Assembly: GCA_963701295.1 (NCBI GenBank) | Contig: OY969585.1 | Span: forward strand, 640,001 to 704,000 | Direction of reading: 5' to 3' | DNA length: 64,000 nt | Origin: Ignavibacteriota bacterium | GTDB lineage: Bacteria; Bacteroidota; Ignavibacteria; UBA10030 | In this document: positions 4,809 to 26,646 of the stretch, one piece after another | How the letters are laid out: every line of letters begins with the position of its first letter | Numbering within the stretch: the stretch's first letter is position 1 | The notes under the pieces: generated by a model | The model's input: the letters and a program-made list of their open reading frames with translations, nothing else | Databases searched by the model: none | Told to the model about the DNA's origin: nothing | Translations under genes and position numbers: made by a program

Positions 4809-6074
4809 CTATGCATTTCCACTATGACCGGTCGCTTGTTTCAAAGCTTCTTCAAGATACCGCAGCGATTTTGCACGCTCTCCCTCTAACATGGTTTCCG
4901 CTTTCGAAAAATCCATTTTCAACGGATCTTCAAGAATCGGCATTTCAGACTTCATCAGTCGTGATGTAAGCCCCAGGAGACTCAGAATACTATAGATGCG
5001 GGTGGCCATCGATGCCGTGCTAAAAGAACCGGGGCGTTCGAAAACATAGAACGGCCTCTTGAAGTTTATAGAAAATATAGTGCCATGAAACGAATCCGTG
5101 CAGACAAGACTTGCATTCTTTACAAGCCCCAGAAATTCTGCTGGGCCGGCATCACTGCAATTTATTGTGTTCGGTCCTTCCATATCACGGTGATCGCGAG
5201 AGACTACAACGAGGCGAAATCCTGTTTGATTACCCAATTTTATTGCGAGGTCCCTGTACACCTGTCCTTCACCTAAGAAATAACATAAGATATACGGTCC
5301 CTGTATATCCGGTTCTATGGCAATGTGATTCCATTGATCATAGTTTAACAACAATGTCGGGTCAAGAACAACTTCGGCATTTCTTCCAGTGAGTTCCTTT
5401 ATCAGATCAGCACCTTGTTTTTCCCGTGAAGATAAGTATGGGATACCATGAATGAATTCTGCCATCTCCGTGCGGAACTTATCAGGAATTTTCGGAATCG
5501 CGATACTGGGGGCATAGGAAATCCTTTTAGCCTTGGGAGCAAAATCCAGGAAATAGGCAGGTTCGTTTCGAGCCTGATCGGGATTCTTGCACATGAACGG
5601 ATTCCATATTTGATCGCTGCCACAAACATACGCATCGTACTGCGGGGAGGATTTTTTCAGTGCTTCGCTCAATGTATAATGATGTTCGGACAGTTTTATA
5701 TACTTACGACGAAAGGAATCAAATCTCGTCTTCCGCAATCCAATAGAGCCATGCGAATGCATAGGAGGCAAAACATCTCCACGATTCTTAATGAAAAGAC
5801 TAAAGTAGTACCGGAAATCCCGTATGTAGAGAGGCATCCGCATAATTCTTCGTCCTATTGACTTTACCAGATATCTTGTTTTCGAAGGAATAGGAGTTGG
5901 ATCAAAATCAATAATTTGACATTCGTAACCAAAACGATCGATTGTCTCTTGAAGTGCATAAGCCAAGAGCACTCCACCGATATTATCGACATAGTGGATC
6001 GTTATCATACCTATTTTTTTCTTTATACTAATTTCATATTCCTTTCGCTTTTTTGTCTTTTCATCCCGGCTCAT
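4809..6074 (-). CDS. Polysaccharide pyruvyl transferase family protein
   Basis: NIGGVLLAYAL, CGSDQIWN, SSRE, LDPTLLL and TDSFHG motifs. Confidence 0.88.
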   Translation of the reverse strand: MSRDEKTKKRKEYEISIKKKIGMITIHYVDNIGGVLLAYALQETIDRFGYECQIIDFDPTPIPSKTRYLVKSIGRRIMRMPLYIRDFRYYFSLFIKNRGDVLPPMHSHGSIGLRKTRFDSFRRKYIKLSEHHYTLSEALKKSSPQYDAYVCGSDQIWNPFMCKNPDQARNEPAYFLDFAPKAKRISYAPSIAIPKIPDKFRTEMAEFIHGIPYLSSREKQGADLIKELTGRNAEVVLDPTLLLNYDQWNHIAIEPDIQGPYILCYFLGEGQVYRDLAIKLGNQTGFRLVVVSRDHRDMEGPNTINCSDAGPAEFLGLVKNASLVCTDSFHGTIFSINFKRPFYVFERPGSFSTASMATRIYSILSLLGLTSRLMKSEMPILEDPLKMDFSKAETMLEGERAKSLRYLEEALKQATGHSGNA

Positions 6075-7428: not shown

Positions 7429-8421
7429 TCATCCACGTTTGACAGTGTTATCTGAGAGTTCTGTCAAGTGCAGTTTATCTCCATACTCAATTTCATATTG
7501 TGGGGGGGAAAATGGACCTGATCCACCGTGCGGATAAAATGTCATTTCACCGGCATAAACCTTACCACAAATATCATAAAGGTCAACTCGAACAAAGTCG
7601 AATGGACGTGACATTTTCCGAACGACTTCTATCATTTCCTCAAGGCATTTAGGCCGTGCCACTTTCTCATCAGAATTCTTTTTCACCAATTTCACAGGGA
7701 GCAAATTCCACTGTAGATCGTAGAAATTACGACGATGATCACCGAAACGATCAACATCAACATGAATCAGGAGCGGTTCCCCATTGAAGCACAAAAATTT
7801 GTAGTCCTTTGGTATTTGATTGTTGTCATCGAAGAGAACTTTTTCACATATAATACGTGGAGGAATATCCCTGTACGCCCACTCACAATCGAAGTAGTAA
7901 GCATTCACTTTTAAATGATGCTTCAAGATCCGCACTGCCTTTTTCTTGTCGAACGAGCTCTTGTCTAAACAGAAAACATTACCCCCGCTTGCATGGTTAA
8001 CCTTGAGCACGTAGGGAGCGGGAAGTTCATCAAACGGTATTTCGCTTGGTTGTTTATACACACCCAACAAGGGAATCAAATATTTTTCTCCAATTGTCTC
8101 CTTCACATATTCTCTTACAGCGTACTTATCGGCACACTTTACCATCAGAGGGTCGTGTTTGTGTAGTTTGATCCAAGCAATTTTCTCATTAAAAGTACGC
8201 GGGCTATCCAGATTTGGCGAAAAGCCGTAATTCTGAATGAAATGATCACTAACCACATCCCTTTCTCCTTCTCGTGCAATGCGCCTCTTCATCTTCCAAA
8301 TGTGGTACCGGTGATAGGGAAATTTTATATACGGATAAATAGTCCGACGAATTATGGAATCCAGCCCCTGCTGAATAATGGAAAAGACGCTTGAATTCTT
8401 CTTGATCACACGGGTTTCCAT
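7429..8421 (-). CDS. TupA-like ATP-grasp protein (putative amide ligase)
   Basis: PRTFNEK, ADKYAVREYV, VLKVNHASG, DYKF, FVRVDLY and GEMTFYP motifs. Confidence 0.88.
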   Translation of the reverse strand: METRVIKKNSSVFSIIQQGLDSIIRRTIYPYIKFPYHRYHIWKMKRRIAREGERDVVSDHFIQNYGFSPNLDSPRTFNEKIAWIKLHKHDPLMVKCADKYAVREYVKETIGEKYLIPLLGVYKQPSEIPFDELPAPYVLKVNHASGGNVFCLDKSSFDKKKAVRILKHHLKVNAYYFDCEWAYRDIPPRIICEKVLFDDNNQIPKDYKFLCFNGEPLLIHVDVDRFGDHRRNFYDLQWNLLPVKLVKKNSDEKVARPKCLEEMIEVVRKMSRPFDFVRVDLYDICGKVYAGEMTFYPHGGSGPFSPPQYEIEYGDKLHLTELSDNTVKRG

Positions 8422-8452
8422 AAAAACATACCTTTCTTCATCCTTTGCATAG

Positions 8453-8548
8453 TCACATGAGAGTTTCGATACGAAAATAGCTGAACCTTAAAACAGCTAA
8501 TTTTTCTTGATGATTGCTCTCAACTTCAGGTTGGTGAATGATTAACAT
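8453..8548 (-). pseudogene. Possible N-terminal remnant of a PP-loop paralog (31 aa)
   Basis: MLIIHQPEVESNHQEKLAVLRFSY weakly resembles MVVVRRPEIENLIDGNVKLKTVF at the start of 8649..9821. Confidence 0.25.
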
Positions 8549-8648
8549 ACGAACATCCCAATAATTTCCTCTTCAGTAATACGCTGCCTTTCATTGAAAT
8601 TCTCACGATGTGTAGAATCGATAGAATCTGAATTTCTACAGCGCAGAA

Positions 8649-9821
8649 TTAGCTCTTCTTTTTCATTGTCCGTTTTATCCAGTTTATGAACCGGTGTTGA
8701 TACCATGCGAGATAATAACAAATCCGCGGTACGAGACGAAAATCTTTTCTTCCAACCATAGCCTCGTACAGCGCTCGGTAAGAACCCGTTGGCTTTTTGT
8801 AAGCCAATACATACCCAACAAACCATTTTCTATTCTTTCTATAGAGATGGAGATCGAAAACGTTCTGATAAAGTTGAAGCTTGCCTAAGATATCCAGCGT
8901 CAACATAGTCCTCAGGCATTTTTCGCACATCGAGCAATTAGCATCCCCATTCACACAGACATTCAAATAACGATATGAAAGTGGAAATGCGACAACAAGC
9001 TTCGTTTTCTCTACTCGCGTATAACAAGTTCCCGTAGAAAAAAAGGTCAGCATTTCCGTCGATACCATAGGCAAGGAGAAAATATCATAGTCGCAAGATA
9101 ATTCGCGAACAAATTGAAAATCCCTAATACTACTGCCTGACGAACAATAGTAAGTCTTAAACAATTTCTGCAAAGCAAGGGCTGCTGAGACATTTGCAAA
9201 TGTGCTTGTAGCGGCAAAGGGTCTTTCCAATATTTCTTCCATATTAGAGTCTACGACTATAAGGGGCAATCCAAGTTCTTGCGCACATTGACGGACACGA
9301 TTGGTCCTTTCTTGAAACAGCTTCTGTGTCTTTTCAGGGTCGGTCCACAATGGGCTATGCCCACCAACGTTGAAAAACGCGCAATGAGTTAATCTATACC
9401 CCTTGGGTTGCCGCTCCGAAAGAAGATCTATAATTGTACTAAAGGAATCGATTCCACACGAAAGACCAGTTCCGACTCCTCCTGCATTCGAAAGAGGTGT
9501 TGAACTCACGGGACAATCGAAAGGAACCACGTGCCACTCTTTAAAAACATACACCATAGCTTTCTGAAGATAATTGGTTATGGTATAATACAAACGCTCC
9601 GATATCGGTACTTCCATCTTCACAGGTAGATTTCGCTTCATCGCATAGAAGAGCAAGGGAAGAATGAAAGCATCACCACGTTCATGACAGAAGTACTGTG
9701 CAAACTCAGGTGTTGTGGAGTACCACATTTCCTTTTTGACATTGTTCACCTCAAACACTGTCTTTAGTTTGACATTGCCATCGATGAGATTCTCAATTTC
9801 AGGCCGGCGTACAACTACCAT
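8649..9821 (-). CDS. PP-loop (adenylating) protein with C-terminal Cys cluster, EPS-associated, function unknown
   Basis: GLSCGIDS PP-loop-like motif, TRVEK, and LNVC...NCSMCEKCLRT. Confidence 0.7.
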   Translation of the reverse strand: MVVVRRPEIENLIDGNVKLKTVFEVNNVKKEMWYSTTPEFAQYFCHERGDAFILPLLFYAMKRNLPVKMEVPISERLYYTITNYLQKAMVYVFKEWHVVPFDCPVSSTPLSNAGGVGTGLSCGIDSFSTIIDLLSERQPKGYRLTHCAFFNVGGHSPLWTDPEKTQKLFQERTNRVRQCAQELGLPLIVVDSNMEEILERPFAATSTFANVSAALALQKLFKTYYCSSGSSIRDFQFVRELSCDYDIFSLPMVSTEMLTFFSTGTCYTRVEKTKLVVAFPLSYRYLNVCVNGDANCSMCEKCLRTMLTLDILGKLQLYQNVFDLHLYRKNRKWFVGYVLAYKKPTGSYRALYEAMVGRKDFRLVPRICYYLAWYQHRFINWIKRTMKKKS

Positions 9822-9851
9822 CGTAATCCTAGATATTTCCTATTTGGGGAT

Positions 9852-10985
9852 TTATTTAATCTCGTAAGGATATATTTGCTTCCGTTTCTGGAACGACAAT
9901 ATGTGTTCATTTCGGATGATCCCATCATGTATATCAATTGCCCTATGAATTGTGTCATCCCTTTCCCATGATTTCGGACCTCGGGAAATAATATCAAGAA
10001 ACGGTAAAAGAGCTTTCGAAATCTCCCGGGATGCAGCATCCCATAAATATGTCGGAATATGGTCGACCGAGTAATACGAAATTCCGTTCATCAGTGTGAT
10101 AATCGGATCCGCGAATGTCGTCGGTTGTGCGAATGAAAAACCCATACCCTTATCGCAGCTTACATCGATGATAATGGTCCGTGGTTTCAGCGCTTTGATA
10201 GTTGAATCGTCAACGAAAATGAGAGGGCTATCGACATCCTGCAGAACACCATTGCAGATAATGTCTGCTTGCGCGAGTTCATCAATAAGAGGAATTATTT
10301 TACCATCGGGAAGCCGTGCCATAAGAAGCCCTCCCTCATCTATAAAAAAGTTGTTATAGTATACATCCGGATTCTGATCTGCGACCACATGAGACGGCCG
10401 CCGAGTATAGACCTGAATGTTGTTGAACCCTCGTCCTTGGAGAGCATAAATCGCACCTCTGCTGACAGATCCATATCCAAGAATTGCCATCGTTCTTCGC
10501 GGCCCATAATGGCCGTCGATCCCAAGAAGCTGAAGTGTATGAAGTACCGCCGCATATCCGGCTATCTCATTATTTTTATAGAAAATATGCATGAGCTTTT
10601 CACCACCGCTACTCCATTGATGCATCGATTCCCATGAAATCAACGTTAATTTCTGATCAATTGCGGCTTGTGCAATATTCCGTTGCTGTACACAGTGTGT
10701 CCAACCCCAGAGTATTTGATTATTTCTCATCTTTTTCAAATCCTCAATAACCGGCTTCGGCAACACTATGATATCACAGCGTTTAAATAATTCTTCTCTT
10801 TTGAGCATTCCACAACATTTTCCCAAAAAATATTCATTTGGATAACCGAACTCTTCTCCATACTTTTCTTCGAAGATTATGTTATTCCGAATTTCTTCCG
10901 GTATCCAAAGCAAGTGCTCCGGATAAATCGGTACACGTTTCTCATTTTCTTTGAATGAAGTTCTGATAACACCAATTGTTAACAT
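9852..10985 (-). CDS. ceo: N5-(carboxyethyl)ornithine synthase family protein (AlaDH/PNT fold)
   Basis: KENEKRVPIYP, WGWTHCVQ, KNNEIAGY, GYGSVSRGA NAD(P) site, IIDVSCD and VDHIP. Confidence 0.82.
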   Translation of the reverse strand: MLTIGVIRTSFKENEKRVPIYPEHLLWIPEEIRNNIIFEEKYGEEFGYPNEYFLGKCCGMLKREELFKRCDIIVLPKPVIEDLKKMRNNQILWGWTHCVQQRNIAQAAIDQKLTLISWESMHQWSSGGEKLMHIFYKNNEIAGYAAVLHTLQLLGIDGHYGPRRTMAILGYGSVSRGAIYALQGRGFNNIQVYTRRPSHVVADQNPDVYYNNFFIDEGGLLMARLPDGKIIPLIDELAQADIICNGVLQDVDSPLIFVDDSTIKALKPRTIIIDVSCDKGMGFSFAQPTTFADPIITLMNGISYYSVDHIPTYLWDAASREISKALLPFLDIISRGPKSWERDDTIHRAIDIHDGIIRNEHILSFQKRKQIYPYEIK

Positions 10986-11051
10986 AAAGACACGGGGAGA
11001 ATGAGTTGAAGAAAGGGCTATGGATAAAGGAAAAAATATAAAAGATTTTTT

Positions 11052-12575
11052 TTACTTCGACATTGTTGTATTCACTCGACGATTTCCGCCGGGGATTTTC
11101 ACAATTTTTCGATATGCTTTTTTGATAATCCCGTTCAAGAACACTCTATCAAATTCCACAAGGAGCTGTCGTCGCTCGTTCCTTCGCAAGCATCTATACA
11201 ACGCATCCAACATCTCTTGATCACCCGATCGCACAGCAAGATCAATACTTTCCCTGAAAAATGATTTTTCGATTTCGTCGGGAATATGACTTTTTCGAAT
11301 TATCCCGGCTGTAGGAAGAGGCGGAAATGGAGCATCGGAAACACCCAGCAATTTCAGAGGAATCATTGTGCGGAGACATTTTTCACACTTACCACAGTTG
11401 ATATTCATGTCTTGGAAACACACCCGTAAATTCGCCAGCGCCGATTCGCTCTCACATATCTTCTCAATTTTCTCTGTCCGTCTCGCCTCACAGCCGTCGT
11501 GAATGATCTCAGGACAATCATTTGACCATAGAGGATCTATCAGGGGATGCGAACCCAGCGGGATCAGCTGAGTATAAGAGAAAGCCGAGGGAACGTAGAC
11601 ACGATGGAATCCAAGAAGAAGCCCAACGCTGGCTAGGACACTTCCTTGTGTGAGAAGTCTACTCAGGTTATAGCGATATCCGAATGGATAATGATTATGT
11701 TCAACCGGGATAAGGGCCTTACCAAAACTCTGAATGAAATGGGTGTTACGCTCGATCGCCATTTTGAATGTCCCAGTGGACTTACTCGATATTTCTTGTG
11801 GACACGCATCCTCCAGCAAGAATCGGTTCAAAACCTTAACGTCTTCTCCTTGAGGATTCTTTTCAAGTAACTGTTTCGTTTGGGGCCGCAGGTTAACCCC
11901 GTTAAAGCGCTGCGATTCGTAGATTACTGGCCCAGCGATCAAAGAATTGAGATCTCTGATTAATGCCGTTTCAACCATACCAGGATCTGAACCGGAGATT
12001 CGATAATTTGATAACGAGTGCAAAGTTGTTTTCGAAAGCATTCCTTGCAGGAACGCGTAGAGTGCGTTCCAGGGCATCATCAGTCTGTAGGCAAATTGCC
12101 CGAGATCACGAATGTCACCAACCGAAAATGCCGGGCCGTCCCCATTGTTTGCATAGAAATCGAATCCATGCATAAAAACCACATGGCTTATTTCTTCCTT
12201 GCGCTTGAGAAAAGTATATTCACTGTCCACACCTCCAGAAAAAAAAGACATACCACCGGCATGAAGCGGCTCAACAGGGGATGTCGTCGCATCGATGGGG
12301 ATTATCTTCAACTCTTCAGGATTCCATGAGTGGAAGATTTCCTGGAGACGGAAAGCATTCTCAAGTAACTTCAGAGAAACCGGCATACTTGCATCAATCT
12401 CAAGCTTCTCGCCCTGTCTCATCGCCGGAAGAAGTGCGGAGGCTAAGAAAGCATCGCCAGATTTCGAAACTGCGTACGATTTGGGTACTCGATACCACAA
12501 TCGATACCCATCCACTTCTGCGGATACTTCTATCGTAGCTGCTTGTTCTTTGATTTCCCTGTTTGCAACGCGCAT
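11052..12575 (-). CDS. PP-loop protein with Cys cluster and an internal insertion of about 120 aa; paralog of 8649..9821
   Basis: FFSGGVDS, HGFDF, GSHPLIDPLWS, RRTEK and LRVC...NCGKCEKCLRT. Confidence 0.7.
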   Translation of the reverse strand: MRVANREIKEQAATIEVSAEVDGYRLWYRVPKSYAVSKSGDAFLASALLPAMRQGEKLEIDASMPVSLKLLENAFRLQEIFHSWNPEELKIIPIDATTSPVEPLHAGGMSFFSGGVDSEYTFLKRKEEISHVVFMHGFDFYANNGDGPAFSVGDIRDLGQFAYRLMMPWNALYAFLQGMLSKTTLHSLSNYRISGSDPGMVETALIRDLNSLIAGPVIYESQRFNGVNLRPQTKQLLEKNPQGEDVKVLNRFLLEDACPQEISSKSTGTFKMAIERNTHFIQSFGKALIPVEHNHYPFGYRYNLSRLLTQGSVLASVGLLLGFHRVYVPSAFSYTQLIPLGSHPLIDPLWSNDCPEIIHDGCEARRTEKIEKICESESALANLRVCFQDMNINCGKCEKCLRTMIPLKLLGVSDAPFPPLPTAGIIRKSHIPDEIEKSFFRESIDLAVRSGDQEMLDALYRCLRRNERRQLLVEFDRVFLNGIIKKAYRKIVKIPGGNRRVNTTMSK

Positions 12576-12631
12576 GTTCTCTTTTCGTTCATATGGAAAG
12601 TTGTATATCTGTCAATCGTGCAGTTTTAGAT

Positions 12632-12830
12632 CTACTTCAACATTCGTTTGATTTTGTTTATTGTTCGATGTTGGTACCAGGCATGAGAGTAAGAGAGTCT
12701 TGATTCCATTTTCAAACCATTGTTTCAAAGATTTCTCTATATAATACCATTAACACAGCTGATACGTAAGAGCAAGAGTACCAGCATTCCTATAGAGTCA
12801 GAATGTACCAATGGAATCAATCACCTGAAA
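12632..12830 (-). pseudogene. Eroded remnant of another PP-loop paralog
   Basis: Minus-strand fragments YREIFETMV and AWYQHRTINKIKRMLK* match the C-terminus of 8649..9821 (YRALYEAMV...AWYQHRFINWIKRTMK). A broken SG-IDS-like piece lies upstream. Confidence 0.6.
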
Positions 12831-12858: not shown

Positions 12859-13899
12859 TCATGAAATTTCATCTTGTTGACCAAAAAACCTTATATAAAA
12901 TATAAAAGAGGTTAGTACGTACATCCTTTTCTTCATGAGATATACAACACATCGACTAAATATTCGAAGCTTTCCAACAGCTTTATAATCTAAAAATGAT
13001 TCGGATATTATTTTACTATTCCTGATGAGAACCAACTGACGTGTAAAATTATCCACTGGTGAGTTCCAAGCATTGATAAGTAAACTAATAAGAAAATTTT
13101 CAATAACTTTTGCATGCATGGATTGCATTATTTGTGCATCGTATGATTTAATATATTTATAAAATTCACGCCATGACTCAAATGTCGTCGTAAGATGCGC
13201 CAAGTAATCATCTTTATATTTCGCGCGAATTTGACCGTTTCTATTTTCTACATAATGATAAAAATATTCATCTGTGGAATAGATGGATTTTGCATAATAA
13301 AATGAATATAGATTGAAAGTGGTGTCTTCTCCATATTTGATACTCTCATTAAAAAATATTTTATTATCTGTGAACAATTTTCTTCTATAGATATTACGTA
13401 CAACAAAATGGAAATTCTTAGAATCATACGCGGAAGAATGAATGATTGGCACTAAATCATGACGGTACAGGACCTTATTCTTTTCAAAATCTGTGCAGAA
13501 TTTTTCTACTTTACCATTTGGTTTTTCATAATAATGGCCGCAATTAACTATATCAACATTTTTATCTACAGCGATTATATACATCGCTGACAACATATCG
13601 CTTTCTATATAATCATCACTATCAACAAATGCTACATATTCACCTTGAGCGAGTTGCATTCCAAAATTTCTAGCAGAACTGGCTCCGCCATTTATTTTAT
13701 GAAAACTTTTAATACGTGAGTCCAATTTCGCGTATTCATCGCAGATGATCCCGCTTCTATCCGGTGACCCATCATTCACCAAAACAATCTCTATCTCTTT
13801 CAAGGTCTGAATGATTATGCTGTCGATGCACCTATGAAGTGTGTCCTCCGCTTTGTATACCGGCACTATGACGCTCACTTTTATATTCAAGCGTTCCAT
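12859..13899 (-). CDS. GT2 glycosyltransferase
   Basis: VPVYK, VNDGSPD, GASSARN, FVDSDD and GED motifs; visibly more AT-rich than the adjacent wzx. Confidence 0.9.
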   Translation of the reverse strand: MERLNIKVSVIVPVYKAEDTLHRCIDSIIIQTLKEIEIVLVNDGSPDRSGIICDEYAKLDSRIKSFHKINGGASSARNFGMQLAQGEYVAFVDSDDYIESDMLSAMYIIAVDKNVDIVNCGHYYEKPNGKVEKFCTDFEKNKVLYRHDLVPIIHSSAYDSKNFHFVVRNIYRRKLFTDNKIFFNESIKYGEDTTFNLYSFYYAKSIYSTDEYFYHYVENRNGQIRAKYKDDYLAHLTTTFESWREFYKYIKSYDAQIMQSMHAKVIENFLISLLINAWNSPVDNFTRQLVLIRNSKIISESFLDYKAVGKLRIFSRCVVYLMKKRMYVLTSFIFYIRFFGQQDEIS

Positions 13900-14103: not shown

Positions 14104-15603
14104 TTATTTTGCCCGAAATTTCGTTAACAGCGTACTTACACTAAACCCCGATTTTTGTGACAACTGCCTGAGGCAGAGATACGTGACAGGACCCAGAACA
14201 ACAAGATTTATCGCCCAGGTAATAATCGGAATGACATTGAAACTGCAGTTGAGCATCAGGATTACCATAACGGCGGTCGAAAGAAGTACCAACATGAAAA
14301 CGTAGCGATTCCAGGTGGCACCAATCAATCCGTGCATAATGAAGTACATCATCACGGTGTAAGAAAAAAGGACAATCGTAAAAGCGATGCCGGTGCCAGT
14401 AAGCCCCCAGAGCCATGAACAAAAGAAAACAGCAATAACTTGGCCAGCAGCAAGCAACAGTTCAGTAAAAAAATACAACTGGCCTTTACCTTTTGCCAAT
14501 ATCACAAAACCGAGCGGCCAAGAGAAGACCTGACCAAGGACGCCGAAGAGGTTCCAACGGAGGATCGGAATAGCAGCAGTGAACGATTTAGTATAGAAGA
14601 TGCGAATAACCAGAGGTGCGAAGACCATCATTGCAGCCAATGCTGGTAATGCGAGTAGTATTGATATCTCTGCTTGCTCATTAATCATTTGGCGAACTTT
14701 TGTATTGTCACCGGATACGGCAGTCACGCGTGGGTAGTAATCGGTTCCCATAGCGTTAAGCACGAAGCCGACCAGGACTCCGGAGAGGCCGAAGGCAGCA
14801 TGGTAGAGGCCGACACCTTCGAGACTGAACTGACGTACCAGCAAAATCCGAATCAAATATTGCCCTACGGTGGCTACCAGACCCGCGCCCATAAAATTGA
14901 TTCCTAGCGTCAGCAAACGCTGTGCCTCATCGCGGCTGTTGCGCCACGTTAATGCAACTGGCACAATTGGTACACGGCGCGCGAACCACCACGAAGATAC
15001 AAGCGAAGCGATTGCAGAAAGAATAAGACTAGGCACAATCCCTTTCTGTCCCCACAAATAATAACACGGGATACTGATGAGTACGCCATTGACTGTGCCG
15101 ATGACATTGATTTTTGCGATATCGCTAATACGGCGTGTTCCTTGCAAGACACAGCCTTGACCAGATGTGATAGAACTGAGAAGGATAGTAATTCCAAGAA
15201 ATGCAATTGGGAGTGCGTACGTGTCACTGTTAAAAGTGATCCATGATATTGGGATACAAAAGAGAATCATTGCCAGCATCCCGAAGCTGCCGGTCAGCCA
15301 GACTATTCTTCGTAGAGTAATTACCGTACGAGCAATCCGTTCCTCATCGCTTGTACCCACTGACTCAGCGATCTGACGAACGCCGCTACTCCCGAGCCCC
15401 ATCCCTGAAATTCCGCACACCAGTGAGGTGATTTGAGAATATGTTCCTAGTAGACCGACTCCGGCAGGACCGATAAGCATGGCAACAAATTTGGTGCGCA
15501 CCATCGCGATCAGAATTTTGATGAACGATGCCCCACCAATTAACGAAGTCGATTTCAGTATGTTACGGTAGCTACTGCTGTCGTGTTTACTCTCAAGAGA
15601 CAC
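14104..15603 (-). CDS. wzx: Wzx O-antigen/polysaccharide flippase, copy 2
   Basis: 499 aa, many TM segments, ILKSTSLIGG, RTKFVA and DYYPR; GTG start with an AGGAG RBS. Confidence 0.88.
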   Translation of the reverse strand: MSLESKHDSSSYRNILKSTSLIGGASFIKILIAMVRTKFVAMLIGPAGVGLLGTYSQITSLVCGISGMGLGSSGVRQIAESVGTSDEERIARTVITLRRIVWLTGSFGMLAMILFCIPISWITFNSDTYALPIAFLGITILLSSITSGQGCVLQGTRRISDIAKINVIGTVNGVLISIPCYYLWGQKGIVPSLILSAIASLVSSWWFARRVPIVPVALTWRNSRDEAQRLLTLGINFMGAGLVATVGQYLIRILLVRQFSLEGVGLYHAAFGLSGVLVGFVLNAMGTDYYPRVTAVSGDNTKVRQMINEQAEISILLALPALAAMMVFAPLVIRIFYTKSFTAAIPILRWNLFGVLGQVFSWPLGFVILAKGKGQLYFFTELLLAAGQVIAVFFCSWLWGLTGTGIAFTIVLFSYTVMMYFIMHGLIGATWNRYVFMLVLLSTAVMVILMLNCSFNVIPIITWAINLVVLGPVTYLCLRQLSQKSGFSVSTLLTKFRAK

Positions 15604-17057: not shown

Positions 17058-18557
17058 TTACTTTGTCCTAAACCTATCGAACAAGGCGTGCAAACCGATC
17101 TCAGATTTTTGTGACAATTGCCTGAGGCAGAGGTACGTTACAGGGACTAAGACGACAATATTGATCGCCCATTCAACAATAGGGCTGACGTTGAGACTGC
17201 AGTTGAGCATCAGGCTCACCATAACGGCGCTCGCAAGAAGTACTAGTTTAAGAGTGCGATAGGTCCAGTTGGTGCCAGCCACCCTGCGTACCACAATGAG
17301 CATCAGCGCAGTGTAGAAAACATAGAGAGTCAGGAAAGCGATCCCAGTACCAATGAGTCCCCAAATCAACGCGAAATAGTAAGTCGCTCCAACAAGCAAA
17401 ACGCAAGCAAAAAGTTCGGTGAGGAAGTACAATTGTCCTTTCCCTTTTGCCAGTATTATGAAGCCCAGCGGCCATGAAAAGACACGACCGAGAACGCCGA
17501 GAATGCTCCAACGCAGTATAGGAACAGCAGCCATAAAGGATTCGGTATAGAAGACACGGATGACTAGTGGTGCGAAGACCATCATCGCCGCTAAGCCCGG
17601 TAGCGAGAGTAGTATAGATATCTCCGCTTGCTCGTTAAACATTCGGTGAACTTTAACATTGTCGCTGGATGCGGCTGTAAGACGTGGGTAGTAATCGGTC
17701 CCCATAGCGCCGAGCACAAAACCTACAAGGATACCAGAGAGGCCGAATGCTGACTGATAGATGCCGACATCATTGAGACCGAATTGACGGATTAAAAAAA
17801 TCCGGATCAGGTAATTCGACAACTGTGCAATGAGACCTGCACCTACAAAGCTAAGCCCTAACGCTAACAGTTGGCGCGCCTCATCACTTGCAGCATGCCA
17901 CTTCAATGCAATAGGCATAATCGGTACGCGGCGTGCAAACCACCACGATGTTATCAACGAAGCTATCGCATAGAGGATCAGGCTGACAACAATTCCCTTT
18001 AGTCCCCAAAAATAGTAACATGGGATACTAATAAGTGTACCGTAAACTGTACCGAGGACACTAATTTTGGCAATGTCGCCGATCCGTCGAGTCCCTTGCA
18101 GTACACAACCCTGGCCAGAAGCAATTGCACTGAGAAGGATAGTGATTCCAAGAAACGCGATGGGCAGCGCATACGAGTCGCTATTAAATGTGATCGTTGA
18201 GATCGGGATACAGAAGAGGATCATGACCAGCATCCCGACGCTACCGGTTACCCAGACTGTCCTTCGCAGAGTGAACACCGTTCGGGAAATTCGTACCTCA
18301 TCGCCTGTACCGACTGCTTCGGCAATTTGACGAACCCCGCTGCTCCCGAGCCCCATCCCTGACATCGTACCCACCACTGATGTGATCTGACTATAAGTCC
18401 CTATGAGACCGACGCCGGTCGGACCGATCAGCAAGGCAACGAACTTCGTGCGCACCATCGAGATCAGGATATTGATAATCGATGCACCACCGATCAACGA
18501 AGTTGATTTCAGTATACTTCGGTAGCTGCCACTATTGGATTCATTTTGCGAATCTAC
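17058..18557 (-). CDS. wzx: Wzx flippase, copy 1 (homologous start codon is GTA; first canonical start is TTG 18497)
   Basis: Colinear paralog of 14104..15603. The open frame extends 20 codons upstream of 18497 (VDSQNESNSGSYRSILKSTS), giving the same 499 aa. Confidence 0.82.
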   Translation of the reverse strand, partial: VDSQNESNSGSYRSILKSTSLIGGASIINILISMVRTKFVALLIGPTGVGLIGTYSQITSVVGTMSGMGLGSSGVRQIAEAVGTGDEVRISRTVFTLRRTVWVTGSVGMLVMILFCIPISTITFNSDSYALPIAFLGITILLSAIASGQGCVLQGTRRIGDIAKISVLGTVYGTLISIPCYYFWGLKGIVVSLILYAIASLITSWWFARRVPIMPIALKWHAASDEARQLLALGLSFVGAGLIAQLSNYLIRIFLIRQFGLNDVGIYQSAFGLSGILVGFVLGAMGTDYYPRLTAASSDNVKVHRMFNEQAEISILLSLPGLAAMMVFAPLVIRVFYTESFMAAVPILRWSILGVLGRVFSWPLGFIILAKGKGQLYFLTELFACVLLVGATYYFALIWGLIGTGIAFLTLYVFYTALMLIVVRRVAGTNWTYRTLKLVLLASAVMVSLMLNCSLNVSPIVEWAINIVVLVPVTYLCLRQLSQKSEIGLHALFDRFRTK

Positions 18558-18620: not shown

Positions 18621-19724
18621 TTAAAATTGGCACGATGCCCGAATGGCAGAAATCACCGATTCTGCTTGTCCAAGATTCATATTTGGTCCCATAGGCAGGC
18701 TCAACACCTCGGCATGAATTTTCTCTGTAATCGGAAAAGCACCTCGCCCATAGCCAAGTCCGTTGTAAGCTGGCTGCATGTGCGGCGGGATAGGATAATG
18801 AATCATCGTCCCTATGCCACGTTCAGTCAAACGGCGTGCTAATTCATCTCGATTCGGGTGCCGAACAATATATACATGCCATACAGATTCACAGCCCTCA
18901 ACCACAGTAGGTAACACGAGATCTTTTATCCCTCCAAGCCCATCGGAATACGCCTTTGCAATTTTGTTCCTCAGGGAATTGTCGCCATCAAGCAGAAGTA
19001 ACTTGGCGCGTAAAAAAGCAGACTGTAACTCGTCAAGACGTGAGTTGAACCCTTTCGCTTCATTATGGTACTTGATACGCGATCCGTAGTTGCGTAATAC
19101 ACGGATCTTATCGGCCAACTGAGAATCGTTGGTAGTTACTGCTCCACTATCTCCAAGCGCTCCCAGATTCTTGCCCGGATAAAAGCTGAAACCTGCTGCA
19201 TCGCCAAGCGAACCTGTCCGCTTTCCGGCATATGCTGCACCATGAGCCTGAGCAGCGTCTTCCAATATTTTTATTCCGTACCGTTTTCCAATTTCGGTTA
19301 TCTTTGACATCTCAGCTGCCTGCCCATAGAGGTGAACTGGAATAATAGCTTTGGTTCGTGGTGTAATAGCAACTTCAATCAGCTCCGGATCGATATTGAA
19401 AGAACTCTCACGGGGTTCCACCGGGATTGGCGTTGCTCCTGAATATGTTACAGCCAGCCAAGTTGCAATATAAGTATTGCAGGGCACAATCACTTCATCA
19501 CCCGGCCCGATATTCCATGCTCGCAATACGAGATGTAATGCCTCAAGACCATTTCCGACGCCGATGCAATGCTGAACACCACAGAAAGCTGCAAATTCGT
19601 TCTCAAAAGCCTCGCATTCCTTGCCAAGAATGAACCAACCACTTTCTAACACCCTGTCAAGTGCTTGATGAAATGCTTCACGTTGTCGGAGATTAATTGT
19701 TTTAAGGTCAAGAAAGGGAATCAT
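18621..19724 (-). CDS. fdtB: DegT/DnrJ/EryC1/StrS aminotransferase (FdtB-like dTDP-3-amino-3,6-dideoxyhexose transaminase)
   Basis: [26 protein letters not shown] and NSRLDELQ; adjacent to the FdtA/C fusion. Confidence 0.85.
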
Positions 19725-20664
19725 TTTTTCCTTTTTGTTGTTTGGCATATTCTAAAAAATGATTGTAATCACGGATATAGTCATTTGCATCGTAGGGATG
19801 TGACATCAGAACGACCAACACTGCATCTTTTGAATATTTGTATTGAGTCGTCCAAACACAGGGTTGGACATGTATACCAAGAGAGGGAGTGTCCAACTTC
19901 ACCTCTGCTCTGTTGAGACCATCATCTAACTGCACAACAATTTGGCCTGCAACGCAGAATAATAATTCATGACATTCTTTGTGCGCATGCTCTCCTCGAA
20001 CTTCTTTTGACGGAACATCAAATACCCAGAAACATCGTTTGACGGTAAACGGTAAATCTTTCTCGAATTCAACAACTGATAAACTCCCTCGGAGATCTAC
20101 AAATTTAGGTAATTTATAAATACAGCATCCACCGACACCCGTATCGATTCGCTTGTCTTTATCCACATCGGAGATGTTTACTGTAGAGAACTTCGTCTGT
20201 GTTGTAGAATCATATCCATTAATTACACCCGGATTTCCAACTACAATTGCATTGGGAGGTACATTACGCAAAACGACCGATCCAGCGCCGATCATAGCAT
20301 TCATGCCTATTGTCACACCGGGCAGTATGGTGGCGTTCGCGCCAATAGACGCACCTTGATGGATCGTCGTTAATAAGAGCTTGAAGTGTTTTTTACTTCG
20401 TGGATATAAATCGTTCGTGAATGTAACGTTCGGCCCGATAAAAACATCATCTTCAATACGCAATCCATCCCAAATCTGCACGCCCGATTTGATCGTCACA
20501 CGATCGCCAATTACAACATCGTTTTCAATCAAGCAATGAGAACAAATATTTACATCGTTCCCGATACGTGCACCGGGCAGGATAACTACATATTGCCAAA
20601 TGCGGGTACTGGATCCAATGGCCTTGGTCTGGACATCAGCGAGTGGATGAATAAAATTATTCAT
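19708..20664 (-). CDS. wxcM: WxcM/FdtD-like bifunctional hexapeptide N-acyltransferase + cupin 3,4-ketoisomerase
   Basis: N-terminal left-handed beta-helix repeats ([11 protein letters not shown]) and C-terminal DLRGSL...RGEHAH FdtA cupin. Confidence 0.88.
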
Positions 20665-20860
20665 ATTTTTTTCTTTCGATGCTGAGTCGTTGAGTTCATT
20701 AATCGTAATACAATCATTGGCATTGGGGATCTAATGCCCCCACCAATATTAAAAAGTCGATTTCGAGATGATGGTGGGAGTAACCAGAAGATTGGTTGGC
20801 AGCGCTACTGCCTGCGCCCCAAACTTGACAAAAGCACTCCAGAGGATTTTCCAAAAATAA

Positions 20861-21778
20861 TTAGTCGGCTTTTCTTTTCTGCATCTTGCTTCGTATGAGC
20901 CAATTGTCGTAGTCGGAATACAATTTGATTAACGAGCTGTTAAAATATATCCCACACAACTCAAAATATTCGTTTATTGGAACAGAAAAAAATACTTCAA
21001 TATATGCAGGGAGATTTGTATTGATAAACTTCGAATTATAGGCGTTCAAACCTTGAGAATAATGCACATAATCTCTCACCACATTTTGCGACTTCCATAA
21101 TCTATTTAATCTATTCTTTGATTCCATCACATTCGATATATCGATTGCAATATTAGGAATTAAATCCGACCAAACTTGATATGCCCATATTTCACATTTC
21201 ATACTTGTCAAGTGAGGCTTTGCATTCCAGAAGAGATGATTCGCACGCCGATGTTCGGGATGATTGTCCAATAGAAATGGAATAAATATAATATCAGGAT
21301 TCTTTTGTTTGATGAGATCTGCAAAGAATGCTGCATTTGTCATATCAATAGGAGTGCCCCCATCAGGATATCTAAGAAAAATCGGGTCACCCCCGATCAT
21401 TTTCCATACCTCTCTTGCCTCTTTCTCACGACATAAAAGCATTTCACGTTCGGGAATTTTGCTGGATGCGAGAGAACCATCTGTAATATAAACACAAGTT
21501 ATTTTCGCTCCTGCGGCGGCAGATTGAATCAGCGTTCCACCTGCGCCAATCGTCTCATCATCTTGATGAGGAGCAATAACAAGAATCCGTTTTCCTTGTC
21601 CTGGTGCTTCCCGTACCAGCGTGTTTAGATTGATTTTAAATCGATCGGTTGTAAGGACTTTTACACACGTATCGATGTCACGGATTGAAATCAAATCTCT
21701 GACGACCCATTTGTATGACCTTCTTCCCGCAAACCAACGAATTCGCCTCAATAGATACTTTTTGATTCCTTCAATCAT
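20861..21778 (-). CDS. PIG-L/LmbE family N-deacetylase
   Basis: IAPHQDDETIGAGG, TDG, REKEA and DNHPEH motifs. Confidence 0.88.
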   Translation of the reverse strand: MIEGIKKYLLRRIRWFAGRRSYKWVVRDLISIRDIDTCVKVLTTDRFKINLNTLVREAPGQGKRILVIAPHQDDETIGAGGTLIQSAAAGAKITCVYITDGSLASSKIPEREMLLCREKEAREVWKMIGGDPIFLRYPDGGTPIDMTNAAFFADLIKQKNPDIIFIPFLLDNHPEHRRANHLFWNAKPHLTSMKCEIWAYQVWSDLIPNIAIDISNVMESKNRLNRLWKSQNVVRDYVHYSQGLNAYNSKFINTNLPAYIEVFFSVPINEYFELCGIYFNSSLIKLYSDYDNWLIRSKMQKRKAD

Positions 21779-21929: not shown

Positions 21930-23894
21930 TCAGCGTATTACCGTCATTGAACGTGTTTTGGAAAATGATCCAGACGTGAATTTATAATAGTAAACACCGC
22001 TTGATACTCCTCCAGCGTTCCACTGGAACTGGTGAATTCCAGACGAATACACACCTTGCGCAAGTGTTTGTATTTCACGACCAAGGACATCAAAGACTTT
22101 CAGGGATGCATACCCGTCAATCGGCATTACGAACTCGATGATCGTGCTCCCATTGAAAGGATTTGGAAAGTTTGGTATAAGAGAATACTTCAGCTGCGTA
22201 GCACTGGTCGGTTGGGTTCCCACTGTCACACGCACACTGTATTGAGCAGTTCCGAGAGACGAAGTAAGTGTAAGCACGAATGTCGTGGTAGTATCCACCT
22301 GTATTGTGTCTCTGCCTATCGTTGCCACGGAACCGATATTGGGACTGATTGAGGCAGAATTTGCATCATTGGAAAACCAGTTGAGTATAACGGTACCCCC
22401 ATTTTTAGGAAGAGTATCCGGTGTAACAGCAAATGTTCCCGTCACACCTGTGGAGCCCGATTCAAATCCTGTGGCTTTCTGGAAGTCTGCAAGAGTATAG
22501 TAAAATATTTCATTAGGGAATGGAGTCGCACAAAATCTTCCCGGACTGTGGAAATGGTTGTTAATGGACGTGACGTTATGCACAACATCAAATTTGTCTA
22601 AGTTAGTATTTGATTGCGTCCCTGTAACATTATTTCCTTCGAGTAATGCTGTACCAGTTCCCAACATAGTAGCAACACCAAGTCCTGTCGCTACTGCGGT
22701 TATCGTATTATTGTAGACATGAGTTTGTCCAGACCCTCCCAAATTTTCCACCGTTCCAGCTTTACAAAGAATGACACTTATTGCCGGCCCAATGCCGCCA
22801 TTGGTTGTGATAAGGTTATCATGAGCCACCCATTGCTCACCATGCAAATAGATTGCGCCTTGAAGGTTTGTAAATGTGCAATATTGAACAGTGTCTCCAT
22901 AATTCAAATACGTATCTACGCCTGAGTCAATGATATTCTCCACGAGACAATGATCCGCAACGCAGGAAGTGTCGGATTCAAAACCTAACCCGCACTGCTC
23001 ACCGCCCTGTGAGATCCCTAATACCCCGTCCATTTCGTTGTTTACTGTATCGTAGGCAAATTTATTGCGAACCCCAAAATAATCATACACTGCGGTTCTG
23101 CTTGTCGAGTCCACATAACACGAATCAATAAGACAATCATGGGTGCCGGTGGAAAGGAACATGGCTTCATTCATACAATTCAACGTCTTGATATGCCGCC
23201 AAATCAAATGGTCGCCCGTGAGAGCTTTCAGTGCCGTCCGGTAATTTCTAAACTCTAAGTTCTGTACGGTGACGTAACTTCCATCTGCAAAACTACCCTC
23301 TCGGAAGATGTGTAGTTGTCCTGGTGCATTGCTGTCATTTGTCCTTACCCATATTGTGTCTGAACCGCCAGCACCTGGGCCATAGCTTGAAGCCACAAAG
23401 CTATCCAGAAATTTCCTTAGGCTATCGGCATTGGACAAATAAAACTGAATCTCTCCCTCTTGATGTGTCATTTGCTGCCACGCGCCTGAATAATACTCAT
23501 ATCCATACGTCTCCACCGTGCGTCCGCACCACGTTTTGTAATAACCAACTCGCCCGGGAACGGCTGTCCATGTATGAAATGACATATCTCCATAGATTAT
23601 CGGTTTCCCACCTGTGCCATACGCATCTATCACTATACGATTAGATGATGTTCCTGTGAATGTTTGAGATATCTCTCCTTCAAAAACGTCTCCCCGTTTA
23701 AGCAAAATATGATCCCCCGCATTGAAACTTGACCGCGATATTTTGGTCAATGTTTGCCACGGAGTCGTTGTGGATGTCCCATTGTTCCCATCATTCCCAC
23801 TCGATGAACTAACGTAATACGTCGTCTGAGCAGACATTGGAACACGATTTAACATCAAAAGAACCATTATGAGGATTCGTTTCACTGTAACCAT
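21930..23894 (-). CDS. Secreted right-handed beta-helix protein with T9SS-type C-terminal sorting domain
   Basis: Likely start ATG 23894 (GGGAGA RBS, signal peptide ending MSA-Q); TTYYVSSSSGNDGNNG beta-helix cap; C-terminal NFPNPFN...GVYYY. Confidence 0.8.
   Translation of the reverse strand: MVTVKRILIMVLLMLNRVPMSAQTTYYVSSSSGNDGNNGTSTTTPWQTLTKISRSSFNAGDHILLKRGDVFEGEISQTFTGTSSNRIVIDAYGTGGKPIIYGDMSFHTWTAVPGRVGYYKTWCGRTVETYGYEYYSGAWQQMTHQEGEIQFYLSNADSLRKFLDSFVASSYGPGAGGSDTIWVRTNDSNAPGQLHIFREGSFADGSYVTVQNLEFRNYRTALKALTGDHLIWRHIKTLNCMNEAMFLSTGTHDCLIDSCYVDSTSRTAVYDYFGVRNKFAYDTVNNEMDGVLGISQGGEQCGLGFESDTSCVADHCLVENIIDSGVDTYLNYGDTVQYCTFTNLQGAIYLHGEQWVAHDNLITTNGGIGPAISVILCKAGTVENLGGSGQTHVYNNTITAVATGLGVATMLGTGTALLEGNNVTGTQSNTNLDKFDVVHNVTSINNHFHSPGRFCATPFPNEIFYYTLADFQKATGFESGSTGVTGTFAVTPDTLPKNGGTVILNWFSNDANSASISPNIGSVATIGRDTIQVDTTTTFVLTLTSSLGTAQYSVRVTVGTQPTSATQLKYSLIPNFPNPFNGSTIIEFVMPIDGYASLKVFDVLGREIQTLAQGVYSSGIHQFQWNAGGVSSGVYYYKFTSGSFSKTRSMTVIR
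23115..23828. repeat. 714-bp direct repeat, copy 1
   Basis: Line-by-line comparison with 36375..37088 (offset 13260) shows no mismatch. Confidence 0.92.
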
Positions 23895-24176
23895 GCTCTT
23901 TGATCTCCCAGGCCACAGCTTCGGCTGCCGTCTTTCCTGGTAAAATTCCTGGATACTCGAAAGGAACATACTGTGATGATTCATGGAATCTCCTTTCACT
24001 AAAGCTTTATGAATTACTAAAAAAATTCCATTTCCAACTGAACTAAAACAATCACGCACTCCTTACGTATTCACATTTGCAATCGATGATAGATCAACAA
24101 CCCTACGAAATTCACTCAAAGTGCATTACAATTGACAGGAAAAGAATAATCGCGATACTAAATAGTACATTTAATC

Positions 24177-25211
24177 TTATTTGATATTCAACGAACAAAA
24201 CCACTCAACAGTTTCCTTCATTCCGCTCTTTACCACGTGGGAAGGAAGGTATCCCAACAATTCTTTTGCTTTTGTGATATCAGCTTGAGAATGTCGAACA
24301 TCACCTGGCCGAAAGGAACCAATGTTTGGCTCTATAGATTTGATCTTCTGGTCATACTCTCCCAACAAGTCCCTTATCATAAAAAATAATTCTTTTAGTG
24401 TTGTCCTGCCGCCGACTGCAACATTATAGACCTGATTCACCGCACTTTTATTCTCTATCGTAGCAGCCAGAATATTTGCCTGTATCACATTATCGATGTA
24501 ACAGAAGTCTCTGCTTGTTTCTCCATCACCATAAATTGTCGAGGCTTTTCCATCCAGCAGTTCACCGATCCATTTGGGAATCACGGCTGCATAAGCTCCG
24601 TCGGGATCCTGTCGCCGACCAAAAACATTGAAGTAACGTAAACCGATGGTCTCAAATCCGTAACAACGGGCAAATACATCGGCATAGAGTTCGTTGACAT
24701 ATTTTGTAACCGCATATGGAGAAAGAGGCTTCCCTATCTTATCCTCTATTTTTGGAAGACCAGGATGGTCTCCATAGGTTGAGCTGCTGGCGGCATACAC
24801 AAACCGTTTCACCTTATTGTCGCGAGCAACAACCAGCATATTCAGCATACCAGTAATATTATTTTCGTTCGTAAAAATTGGGTTCGCAATCGATCGCGGC
24901 ACCGAACCAATAGCAGCCTCGTGCAAGACAAAGTCGACATCTGTGCAGGATTGCTGACAGGTCTCGAGATTCCGGATATCTCCTTCGATGAAATTGAACT
25001 GGGACCACTGCTTTTCACTGACTAGCGATTTTACATCGTATAGATTTTTTTTATGCCCAGTTGAAAAATTATCCAATCCGATAACGACCTGATCGAGCTT
25101 CAGGAGTTGCTCGAGAAGATTGGAGCCGATAAAACCTGCCACACCGGTCACGAGCCATCGCTTTGGCTCCTTTTTTAATTGTCGTATCATTTCTTCGTAC
25201 TTCGTCGCCAT
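24177..25211 (-). CDS. wbpP: UDP-GlcNAc(A) C4-epimerase (WbpP/TviC-like)
   Basis: [41 protein letters not shown] and AYAAVIPKW. Confidence 0.88.
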
Positions 25212-25338
25212 ATAACCTTCTCAATGGTTTATTGATCAATGTGCCATCTTTATCTGTCTGTTTTATTGTTTATAAATATGTTTCAACAAGCCAATATATT
25301 GGCGCTACTCGCGATACGATAAAGTGCAAGCCTTTTGC

Positions 25339-26646
25339 CTATGCTTGATGTACGAACGATATACGATGGTCAGCAATATTCCGTGTATTGAGGATGGGGA
25401 TATTGAAAGATGTGAAATCAATTTTTTTATATTCACTGTGGGCTGTTGCTATAAGGATAAGATCATACTTGTTATTGACATCAACGGATTTTTTTCCCGC
25501 ATAACAAGACCACTCTCGTGAAGGTCGAATCATCGGTACATAGGGATCATTATAGCTGACGATAGCCCCATGTTTTTCTAACTTCTCCATCAAATGATAG
25601 GATGGTGATTCACGATCGTCATCGACATTTGCCTTATATGCCAAACCAAGGATCAAGATTTTCGAACCTTTGAGCGGTTTTTTGTACTCATTCAGTACTT
25701 CCATCGCTCGCTGTACAACAAAGTCCGGCATCGCGCTGTTAATTTCTCCGGCAAGTTCGATGAACCGCGTTGTCATTCCGTACTCGTGCGCTTTCCATGT
25801 GAGATAGAACGGATCTATCGGAATACAATGTCCACCGAGCCCCGGTCCCGGATAGAATGGCATAAAACCGAATGGCTTTGTTTTCGCGGCATCGATGACT
25901 TCCCAAATGTCAATCCCCATTTTCATCAACGTTACCTTTAATTCATTTACTAACGCGATATTAACCGCACGAAAAATATTTTCCAGCAGCTTTGTCGCCT
26001 CCGCTGCCCTCGTATTCGAAACCGGGATGGTCCGAACGACAACTTGCTGATACAATTTCTCTGCGACAACCAATCCTTCGTGTGAAGTTGCACCGACTAC
26101 TTTAGGAATCGTTTCCGTGCGGTAATCTATATTGGCAGGGTCTTCACGTTCCGGCGAAAATGCAGCAAAGAAATCCCTGTCCACTTTCAATCCCTTCTCC
26201 TCAAGAATGGGAATCATCACTTCATCGGTCGTACCGGGATAAGTTGACGACTCTAGAACGATCAATTGTCCTTTTCGTATATAGGGGGCAATTGCTTTAC
26301 ATGATGCAACAATATACTGGACATCCGGTTCACGATTTTTATTCAGAGGGGTTGGCACTGCTATAAGGATGACATCGCATTCACGCGCACGAGCGAACCC
26401 TGCCGTCGCAGAAAACAATCCACTCTTCACGGCTCTTTGGATACGCTCCGACGGAATATGTTTGATATATGATTCACCACGCATCAGGGCATCGATTTTC
26501 TTCATATCAATGTCGAGCCCGATTGAAGTGAAACCCTTTTCGGCGAAACAGAGAATTAATGGAAGACCAACATAGCCGAGACCGATGACCCCAATCACCG
26601 CTTTTTTCTGTTCAATTTTTTGAAAAAGTTCTTCGTGGATTGTCAT
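25339..26646 (-). CDS. wbpA: UDP-N-acetylhexosamine 6-dehydrogenase (WbpA-like)
   Basis: GLGYVGLP, ESSTYPGTT, SPEREDP, KLLENIFR and GPGLGGHCIP. Confidence 0.85.
   Translation of the reverse strand: MTIHEELFQKIEQKKAVIGVIGLGYVGLPLILCFAEKGFTSIGLDIDMKKIDALMRGESYIKHIPSERIQRAVKSGLFSATAGFARARECDVILIAVPTPLNKNREPDVQYIVASCKAIAPYIRKGQLIVLESSTYPGTTDEVMIPILEEKGLKVDRDFFAAFSPEREDPANIDYRTETIPKVVGATSHEGLVVAEKLYQQVVVRTIPVSNTRAAEATKLLENIFRAVNIALVNELKVTLMKMGIDIWEVIDAAKTKPFGFMPFYPGPGLGGHCIPIDPFYLTWKAHEYGMTTRFIELAGEINSAMPDFVVQRAMEVLNEYKKPLKGSKILILGLAYKANVDDDRESPSYHLMEKLEKHGAIVSYNDPYVPMIRPSREWSCYAGKKSVDVNNKYDLILIATAHSEYKKIDFTSFNIPILNTRNIADHRISFVHQA

Follow-up and report, generated by a model that had tools for sequence, protein, structure and literature searches.

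The 64,000-nucleotide stretch analyzed here (the window; positions 640,001 to 704,000 of contig OY969585.1, Ignavibacteriota bacterium) carries an extended polysaccharide cluster of the Wzx/Wzy type on its minus strand. Within it, four neighboring genes encode a reductase related to carboxyethyl-ornithine synthase (Ceo), a TupA-like ligase, and two PP-loop proteins; a pyruvyl transferase is encoded nearby:

11052..12575, minus strand: P0004, 507 aa, QueC-fold PP-loop/four-cysteine enzyme of the Ceo-linked clade
9852..10985, minus strand: P0003, 377 aa, long-form Ceo-like reductase with the alanine dehydrogenase/pyridine nucleotide transhydrogenase (AlaDH/PNT) fold, a predicted NADPH-dependent opine synthase
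8649..9821, minus strand: P0002, 390 aa, QueC-fold PP-loop/four-cysteine enzyme of a branch often found beside pyruvyl transferases
7429..8421, minus strand: P0001, 330 aa, TupA-like ATP-grasp amide ligase (PF14305; ATP-grasp motifs present)
4809..6074, minus strand: polysaccharide pyruvyl transferase family protein (PF04230, E 2.6e-36), the likely partner of P0002

The genes are transcribed in the order P0004, P0003, P0002, P0001, with intergenic gaps of 66, 30, and 227 bp, and the pyruvyl transferase gene lies two genes beyond P0001. A first-pass annotation had described an opine-decoration module spanning 7429..12830; the start holds, and the end moves to 12575 since positions 12576-12830 contain no module gene. 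The four open reading frames are present as described. Comparison of gene neighborhoods revealed that the four genes are a mosaic rather than a single four-gene module: a probable opine-amide cassette with an optional Ceo-linked QueC-fold enzyme is mixed in with the genes of a core locus, to which the other, distantly related PP-loop enzyme belongs. The earlier view of both PP-loop genes, Ceo, and TupA as one module is not supported: 50 of 63 Ceo loci, those of E. coli included, lack a PP-loop gene. The whole four-gene set was found in no locus beyond the window; the closest homologue of P0002 and that of P0003 have one ENA contig size (12,832) in common, so the arrangement probably recurs. 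The genome (3.64 Mb) has one copy each of the genes for TupA, the Ceo-like reductase, and the pyruvyl transferase, and its only PP-loop family members are P0002 and P0004. The G+C content (GC) of the four genes (0.42-0.46) is close to that of the genome (0.42) and thus does not indicate recent transfer.

Judged from its sequence, P0003 belongs to the Ceo branch, as the first-pass annotation had held. Its sequence identity is 41-44% with the Streptomyces and E. coli plasmid proteins that RefSeq names Ceo, 26-27% with the short Ceo forms of Lactococcus, Enterococcus, and Vagococcus, and 20-24% with AlaDH. Two trees built by a quick method, with 59 and 22 rows, place the long-Ceo clade that includes P0003 as sister to the short Lactococcus-type clade (Shimodaira-Hasegawa support 88 and 92, neither starred). 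Alternative groupings were assessed with approximately unbiased (AU) tests. Grouping with AlaDH was rejected (p 0.002), and P0003 scores far under the cut-off of the alanine dehydrogenase model TIGR00518 (61.6 bits; cut-off 391.85); the genome carries a separate AlaDH elsewhere. Grouping with lysine-ketoglutarate reductase/saccharopine dehydrogenase (LKR/SDH) was also rejected (p 0.02), in a weak test that included two bacterial LKR-like rows only. The Ceo of Lactococcus lactis (EC 1.5.1.24) condenses pyruvate with ornithine or lysine in an NADPH-dependent reaction; the row used here is a RefSeq-named plasmid protein whose identity with the assayed enzyme rests on its name. Like this protein, P0003 has the AlaDH/PNT fold, the motif YKN-x(3)-AGY, and basic residues after the second, nucleotide-binding Rossmann strand, where AlaDH has Asp. 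Basic residues at this position typically confer a preference for NADPH. Unlike it, P0003 is about 65 aa longer and has DH for PN in the C-terminal motif, and the relatives of P0003 lie in glycan loci beside ligases; the L. lactis gene, carried on a plasmid, has stress genes as neighbors. No Ceo-like gene was detected in 60 close relatives or in 201 Bacillota genomes.

The Ceo neighborhoods were taken from the 80 top-ranking matches among 471 in metagenomes, collapsed at 95% identity to 63 loci, and ligases were labeled with hidden Markov models built on clusters of those same loci, the cluster representatives being named by Pfam. An ATP-grasp gene lies at most 1.5 kb from Ceo in 34 of the 63 loci (TupA 23, RimK-like 11, ATPgrasp_ST 1; two in one locus), and any amide ligase, AsnB-like and AMP-binding enzymes included, in 42. 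These numbers are 18 and 22 among the 31 loci whose flanks extend 1.5 kb or more in both directions. This interchange of unrelated ligase folds beside Ceo is the best evidence that the Ceo product gets amide-linked, and the strong conservation of the pair in glycan loci agrees with the first-pass proposal of an opine amide-linked to the glycan. The TupA assignment of P0001 itself is clear (PF14305, E 3e-53, 181 bits against a cut-off of 25, profile positions 1-240 of 241). A Ceo/RimK-like ATP-grasp pair also occurs in 5 of 5,426 E. coli genomes. The one E. coli plasmid locus that was read (L160:3855-13104) is compact, with genes for a WecA-like protein, the ATP-grasp enzyme, Ceo, Wzx, a glycosyltransferase (GT), Wzy, and an epimerase and without a PP-loop gene, and it offers a culturable source for an opine-amide structure. 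In eight of the 63 loci (L103, L106-L108, L112, L118, L132, L137), enolase-like and histidine-phosphatase (phosphoglycerate mutase-like) genes accompany Ceo and a ligase, perhaps for phosphoenolpyruvate/pyruvate supply or for dephosphorylation of a product. In another glycan locus (L138:10001-12385), an octopine-dehydrogenase-family gene (PF02317) follows the Ceo-like gene, so that two opine-forming folds adjoin.

The P0004-type PP-loop gene co-occurs with Ceo across genomes. A gene best matching the P0004 profile is present in 13 of the 63 Ceo loci, in 11 of them at 1.5 kb or less, and the P0002 type in none. Several loci repeat the order PP-loop, Ceo, ligase: the ligase is TupA in two (L082, L126) and a RimK-like enzyme in three (L128, L135, L141), and in L087 the pair is accompanied by AsnB and AMP-binding ligases. 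The eleven Ceo-linked P0004-type rows form a clade at 99% support; in L122, a separate PP-loop branch lies 28 bp from Ceo (AU p 0.018). As these loci had been found via Ceo, the sizes of the longest contigs were compared as an independent check: 119 P0004 homologues and 119 Ceo homologues have 15 sizes in common (chance mean 0.9, maximum 5, in 120 shifts), and P0002 homologues have one in common with Ceo. Pairwise distances of P0004 and Ceo are also correlated (Mantel rho 0.54, p 0.004, 11 loci), which shows joint inheritance, not function. The first-pass link of the PP-loop genes to Ceo is supported for P0004 and not for P0002. In three loci that are probably of one lineage (L097, L104, L105), the P0004-type and Ceo-like genes point away from each other, and neither a ligase nor glycan genes were seen near. 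Among 400 genomes of the class, the P0004 clade is absent, with two weak partial matches only.

Relatives of P0002 often lie beside pyruvyl transferases. Its 77 relatives in GTDB loci have Ceo nearby in no case, TupA in one, a pyruvyl transferase in 28 (26 at 2.5 kb or less), and an FrhB-type Fe-S protein in 11; conversely, only one of the 63 Ceo loci has a pyruvyl transferase, though most are glycan loci too. The gene at 4809-6074, passed over by the first-pass annotation, is therefore relevant to P0002. In unbiased samples of four phyla (57 loci), Ceo and TupA were again absent and a pyruvyl transferase was called in 20, some of these calls being low-scoring. Two fusions of a PP-loop protein to PF04230 were confirmed (P0113, P0466), and in Azospirillum brasilense Sp7 a PP-loop/pyruvyl transferase pair stands alone; numerous Bacillaceae and methanogen copies of the P0002 type lie outside glycan loci. 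The closest named locus (L001, Ignavibacteriota) encodes a P0002 orthologue of 57% identity in a syntenic arrangement with orthologues of the pyruvyl transferase, GT2, GT4, Wzy, and GT2 proteins (50-57%), and without Ceo, TupA, and P0004. Its retention of P0002 without the other three genes points to P0002 as part of the locus core, which is likely the older portion.

At the sequence level, P0002 carries SCGIDS at position 121 and NCSMCEKCLRT, and P0004 carries SGGVDS at position 113 and NCGKCEKCLRT, confirming the S(G/C)GxDS and NCxxCEKCLRT motifs noted in the first-pass annotation. In both, a fourth invariant Cys precedes CxxCxxC by 7-8 residues, and the ATP loop and the four cysteines are invariant or nearly so across aligned relatives. 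The two proteins are 25-26% identical, within two patches only, and lie on opposite sides of the deepest split in the family tree. A local duplication was rejected (sister relationship, AU p 7e-37); they are paralogs in the sense of one QueC-fold family, and distant ones. Both missed every Pfam and NCBIfam cut-off. A search of the PDB by sequence gave no match for P0002, and the family profile drew only weak PP-loop matches.

The structures of both proteins were predicted with high confidence (pLDDT 95 for P0002 and 93 for P0004) and compared with 48,161 representative chains. The top matches were QueC and Cap9 for P0002 (Z 12.0 each, root-mean-square deviation (rmsd) 3.2 and 3.1, 177 and 170 residues aligned) and likewise for P0004 (QueC, Z 12.8, rmsd 3.2, 172 aligned; Cap9, Z 11.9). 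Foldseek gave QatC as first match for P0002 (E 2e-5), which aligns along the full length of P0002 with a TM score of 0.40; with the P0004 model it gave no match at E<=0.001, and the wide structure search then yielded QueC and Cap9. On these models, both proteins combine the PP-loop, the C(x)nCxxCxxC pattern, and the fold of the QueC superfamily, consistent with the first-pass view of them as adenylating enzymes. They share the SxGxDS loop and four-Cys zinc-type site of QueC (PF06508, PDB 3bl5), Cap9 (9nto), and QatC (9y01/9y02), and differ from them in an extra N-terminal domain of about 110 aa, C-terminal helices, and glycan context. Of the comparisons the first-pass annotation had suggested, that with QueC was borne out and that with asparagine synthetase was not: AsnB structures reached Z ~5.5 only, and there was no Pfam match to that family.

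Canonical QueC (preQ0 synthase) was also rejected as an identity, with no Pfam match to PF06508 and with YxQxHxxE, VPxRN, and YPDC each found zero times in alignments of 89, 62, and 128 rows. So was QatC: neither protein matches NF041925, whose best value within the family is E 1e-4 in 4 of 128 members, and the neighbors are glycan genes, not qatABD. MurL is absent from the NCBIfam and PDB match lists, which involved no direct comparison with a MurL sequence. A profile of P0004 relatives retrieved 2,519 clusters (50% identity) at E<=1e-30, part of these matches being through an inserted domain; in the ESM Atlas, only unnamed clusters were matched, the nearest named ones being DUF6395 (0.90) and QueC (0.88). 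The insert of P0004 is a helical domain of about 125 aa directly after the PP-loop region (about residues 141-266; window positions 11778-12155), without a Pfam match; 43 of 62 aligned homologues are of the long form, and in P0367, an unrelated protein, the domain is repeated in tandem. The family has no entry in a 2026 survey of QueC proteins (PMC13329287), which has no mention of polysaccharide, glycosyltransferase, or pyruvyl. Distant members occur on five viral contigs (L240-L244), several amid tail-like genes. Among P0002-type proteins, those of L193, L195, and L196 (Cyanobacteriota sample) reach about 625 aa, and the one scanned, from L193, ends in a D-Ala-D-Ala carboxypeptidase domain (PF00768), a hint that some family members have a role in peptidoglycan.

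The remainder of the cluster encodes sugar-modifying enzymes that bear on the interpretation:

25339-26646, minus strand: NDP-sugar dehydrogenase, TviB/WbpA-like (TIGR03026 above cut-off; TviB below cut-off)
24177-25211, minus strand: TviC/WbpP-like epimerase (below cut-off)
18621-21778: FdtB-like aminotransferase, FdtA/acetyltransferase fusion, and PIG-L deacetylase

The dehydrogenase/epimerase pair (24177-26646) lies about 12 kb upstream of the four genes on the same strand and is the likely source of an N-acetylhexosamine uronic acid, in line with the uronic-acid-forming dehydrogenase of the first-pass annotation. The cluster looks mosaic, with two closely similar Wzx flippases (14104-15603 and 17058-18497), each followed by a GT2 gene, and a GT2 gene of low GC (0.33) at 12859-13899. 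Secreted beta-helix-like proteins at 21930-24059 and 32340-37160 are nearly identical to each other over several hundred residues at the N terminus, and the glycan locus L001 holds a similar duplicated pair. A promoter scan was at chance level (12 sites, 12.9 expected), and terminator-like sites numbered 8 against 4.5 expected, every one weak.

From these observations we propose the following pathway. P0003 would join pyruvate to the side-chain amine of lysine or ornithine at the expense of NADPH, giving N-(1-carboxyethyl)-lysine or -ornithine. P0001 would form a uronyl phosphate and then form an amide between the alpha-amine of the opine and the uronic acid's C6 carboxylate. This step is modeled on the C-terminal amidoligase of Cj1438 (Campylobacter jejuni HS:2 capsule), whose TupA-like domain is reported to amidate the C6 carboxylate of glucuronic acid (PMC11800379). 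Both are TupA-like ATP-grasp enzymes of polysaccharide loci with a uronic-acid dehydrogenase; P0001 differs in being stand-alone and in its predicted amine, an opine instead of serinol or ethanolamine (phosphate). The product would resemble the structure of P. rustigianii O14, which contains a carboxyethyl-lysine galacturonamide (PMC10609480); such amides are known from O-antigen chemistry. P0004 would adenylate a leftover opine carboxylate and convert it into an amide cap, and P0002 would perform like chemistry on the pyruvate group set by the pyruvyl transferase at 4809-6074. QueC converts a carboxylate to an amide and then a nitrile, QueC and Cap9 both use ATP to make an amide from a carboxylate, and for QatC the acylation of a protein amine has been proposed (PMC13329287), precedents that slightly favor amide capping over epimerization of the MurL type. 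Opine synthesis and ligation by the cassette are probable, their substrates and products being inferred; that P0004 acts in the opine pathway has a somewhat better than even chance, and whether its outcome is an amide rather than an epimer is close to a toss-up. The explanation as a whole, with P0002 acting on the pyruvyl group, we regard as evenly balanced between right and wrong. In the literature, no paper was found that connects Ceo with the decoration of glycans or that describes this PP-loop family, nor one assigning genes to carboxyethyl-lysine amides in a search with subscription papers mostly outside its reach, where the supplements of PMC5560731 may list O13/O60 genes; the main text of the Proteus O-antigen paper, in its accessible part, does not address the opine.

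Several observations weigh against this pathway. The identity of only 27% between P0003 and the L. lactis protein is too low to fix its amine and keto-acid substrates, and the TviB-like dehydrogenase may serve another glycan of the large mosaic cluster. Eleven more distant Ceo-like loci, assigned by tree or similarity, have no ligase, and in two loci (L142:8587-11122 and L145:568-3134) a distant Ceo-like gene lies directly 3' of a Lys9-type saccharopine dehydrogenase gene, possibly as an opine or lysine catabolic pair. As for P0004, its absence from most Ceo loci makes it dispensable, and, with the Ceo-linked clade sampled through Ceo, the co-inheritance could be joint transfer only. Its sister branches (L172, L173) have neither Ceo nor a pyruvyl transferase nearby and adjoin genes for GNAT, AsnB, and ATP-grasp proteins, so that an amino-acid substrate in general would fit. 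The cassette also has no glutamine amidotransferase for ammonia supply. For P0002, a pyruvyl transferase was undetected in 49 of the 77 related loci and in 37 of the 57 unbiased ones.

The PP-loop proteins could be passengers, with Ceo and TupA making the opine amide while P0002 and P0004 modify another glycan carboxylate, a uronic acid or a pyruvate ketal, and are tied to Ceo by cassette inheritance only. The wider family indeed lacks Ceo in all 57 unbiased loci, a sample of 201 genomes has the family in 24 and a Ceo-like gene in one other genome, and the E. coli Ceo/ATP-grasp glycan loci have no PP-loop gene. However, P0004-type genes adjoin Ceo with three ligase types, the divergent pair of L097, L104, and L105 has no glycan genes in view, and a second PP-loop branch adjoins Ceo in L122, which makes this explanation unlikely. 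Somewhat less probable still is that P0004, and P0002, are epimerases like MurL, adenylating the carboxylate beside the 1-carboxyethyl or amino-acid stereocenter, inverting S to R, and releasing AMP. R forms of carboxyethyl-lysine occur, an amine donor gene would be unnecessary, matching the cassette, and an optional role matches the patchy distribution. MurL itself turns ATP to AMP in a one-way epimerization, with a proposed adenylate of the carboxyl group of a cell-envelope precursor (PMC8788868), and glycans hold both R and S lactyl ethers (PMC10609480). No MurD2 partner was seen in the window, and the nearest structures, QueC, Cap9, and QatC, are amide-forming or proposed to be so.

The amide might also run in the opposite sense, the opine carboxylate being activated by TupA or P0004 to acylate an amino sugar, as with alanopine on 4-amino-4,6-dideoxyglucose (Qui4N) in P. 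alcalifaciens O35 (structure listed in PMC10609480). The window does encode the aminotransferase, acetyltransferase fusion, and deacetylase at 18621-21778, and the P0004 type is present in five of the ten in-group Ceo loci without a nearby ligase, so that P0004 might itself be a ligase. However, short contigs account for two of these five, an ATP-grasp gene lies 2.6 kb away in L122, and the sole TupA-like enzyme with a reported reaction activates a uronic acid (PMC11800379); we consider this route improbable. We give very little credence to the idea that P0003 uses another keto acid or amine, such as 2-oxoglutarate and lysine in the manner of LKR, or merely supplies alanine to the ligase. The distant members in L142 and L145 adjoin Lys9-type genes, and the VDH-P motif of P0003 is shared with LKR/SDH rows (VDNLP), unlike the VAN-P of AlaDH. 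Both groupings were nonetheless rejected by the AU tests, the AlaDH score is low (62 bits, cut-off 392), and an AlaDH exists elsewhere in the genome.

Returning to the proposed pathway, Ceo and the pyruvyl transferase both leave a pyruvate-derived carboxylate on the glycan, which suggests that the PP-loop family acts on such carboxylates, O- or N-linked. On this basis, we tentatively put forward, as a possibility of modest weight, that the QueC-fold family comprises general tailoring enzymes for pyruvate-derived 1-carboxyethyl(idene) groups on glycans, mostly O-linked, with at least two branches having switched to the N-linked group that Ceo makes, and that the window makes two undescribed decorations. 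If so, these decorations would be amidated or epimerized carboxyethyl groups, and the presence in the window of one PP-loop enzyme per pyruvate-attaching enzyme would constitute a built-in specificity test. Ceo with its exchangeable ligase provides testable candidates for the genes of carboxyethyl-lysine amides. A PP-loop branch that partners Ceo, not a pyruvyl transferase, narrows the substrate to a small molecule accessible by enzymatic synthesis, and a simple ATP assay might thus assign a function to a family of thousands of members that has no Pfam family.

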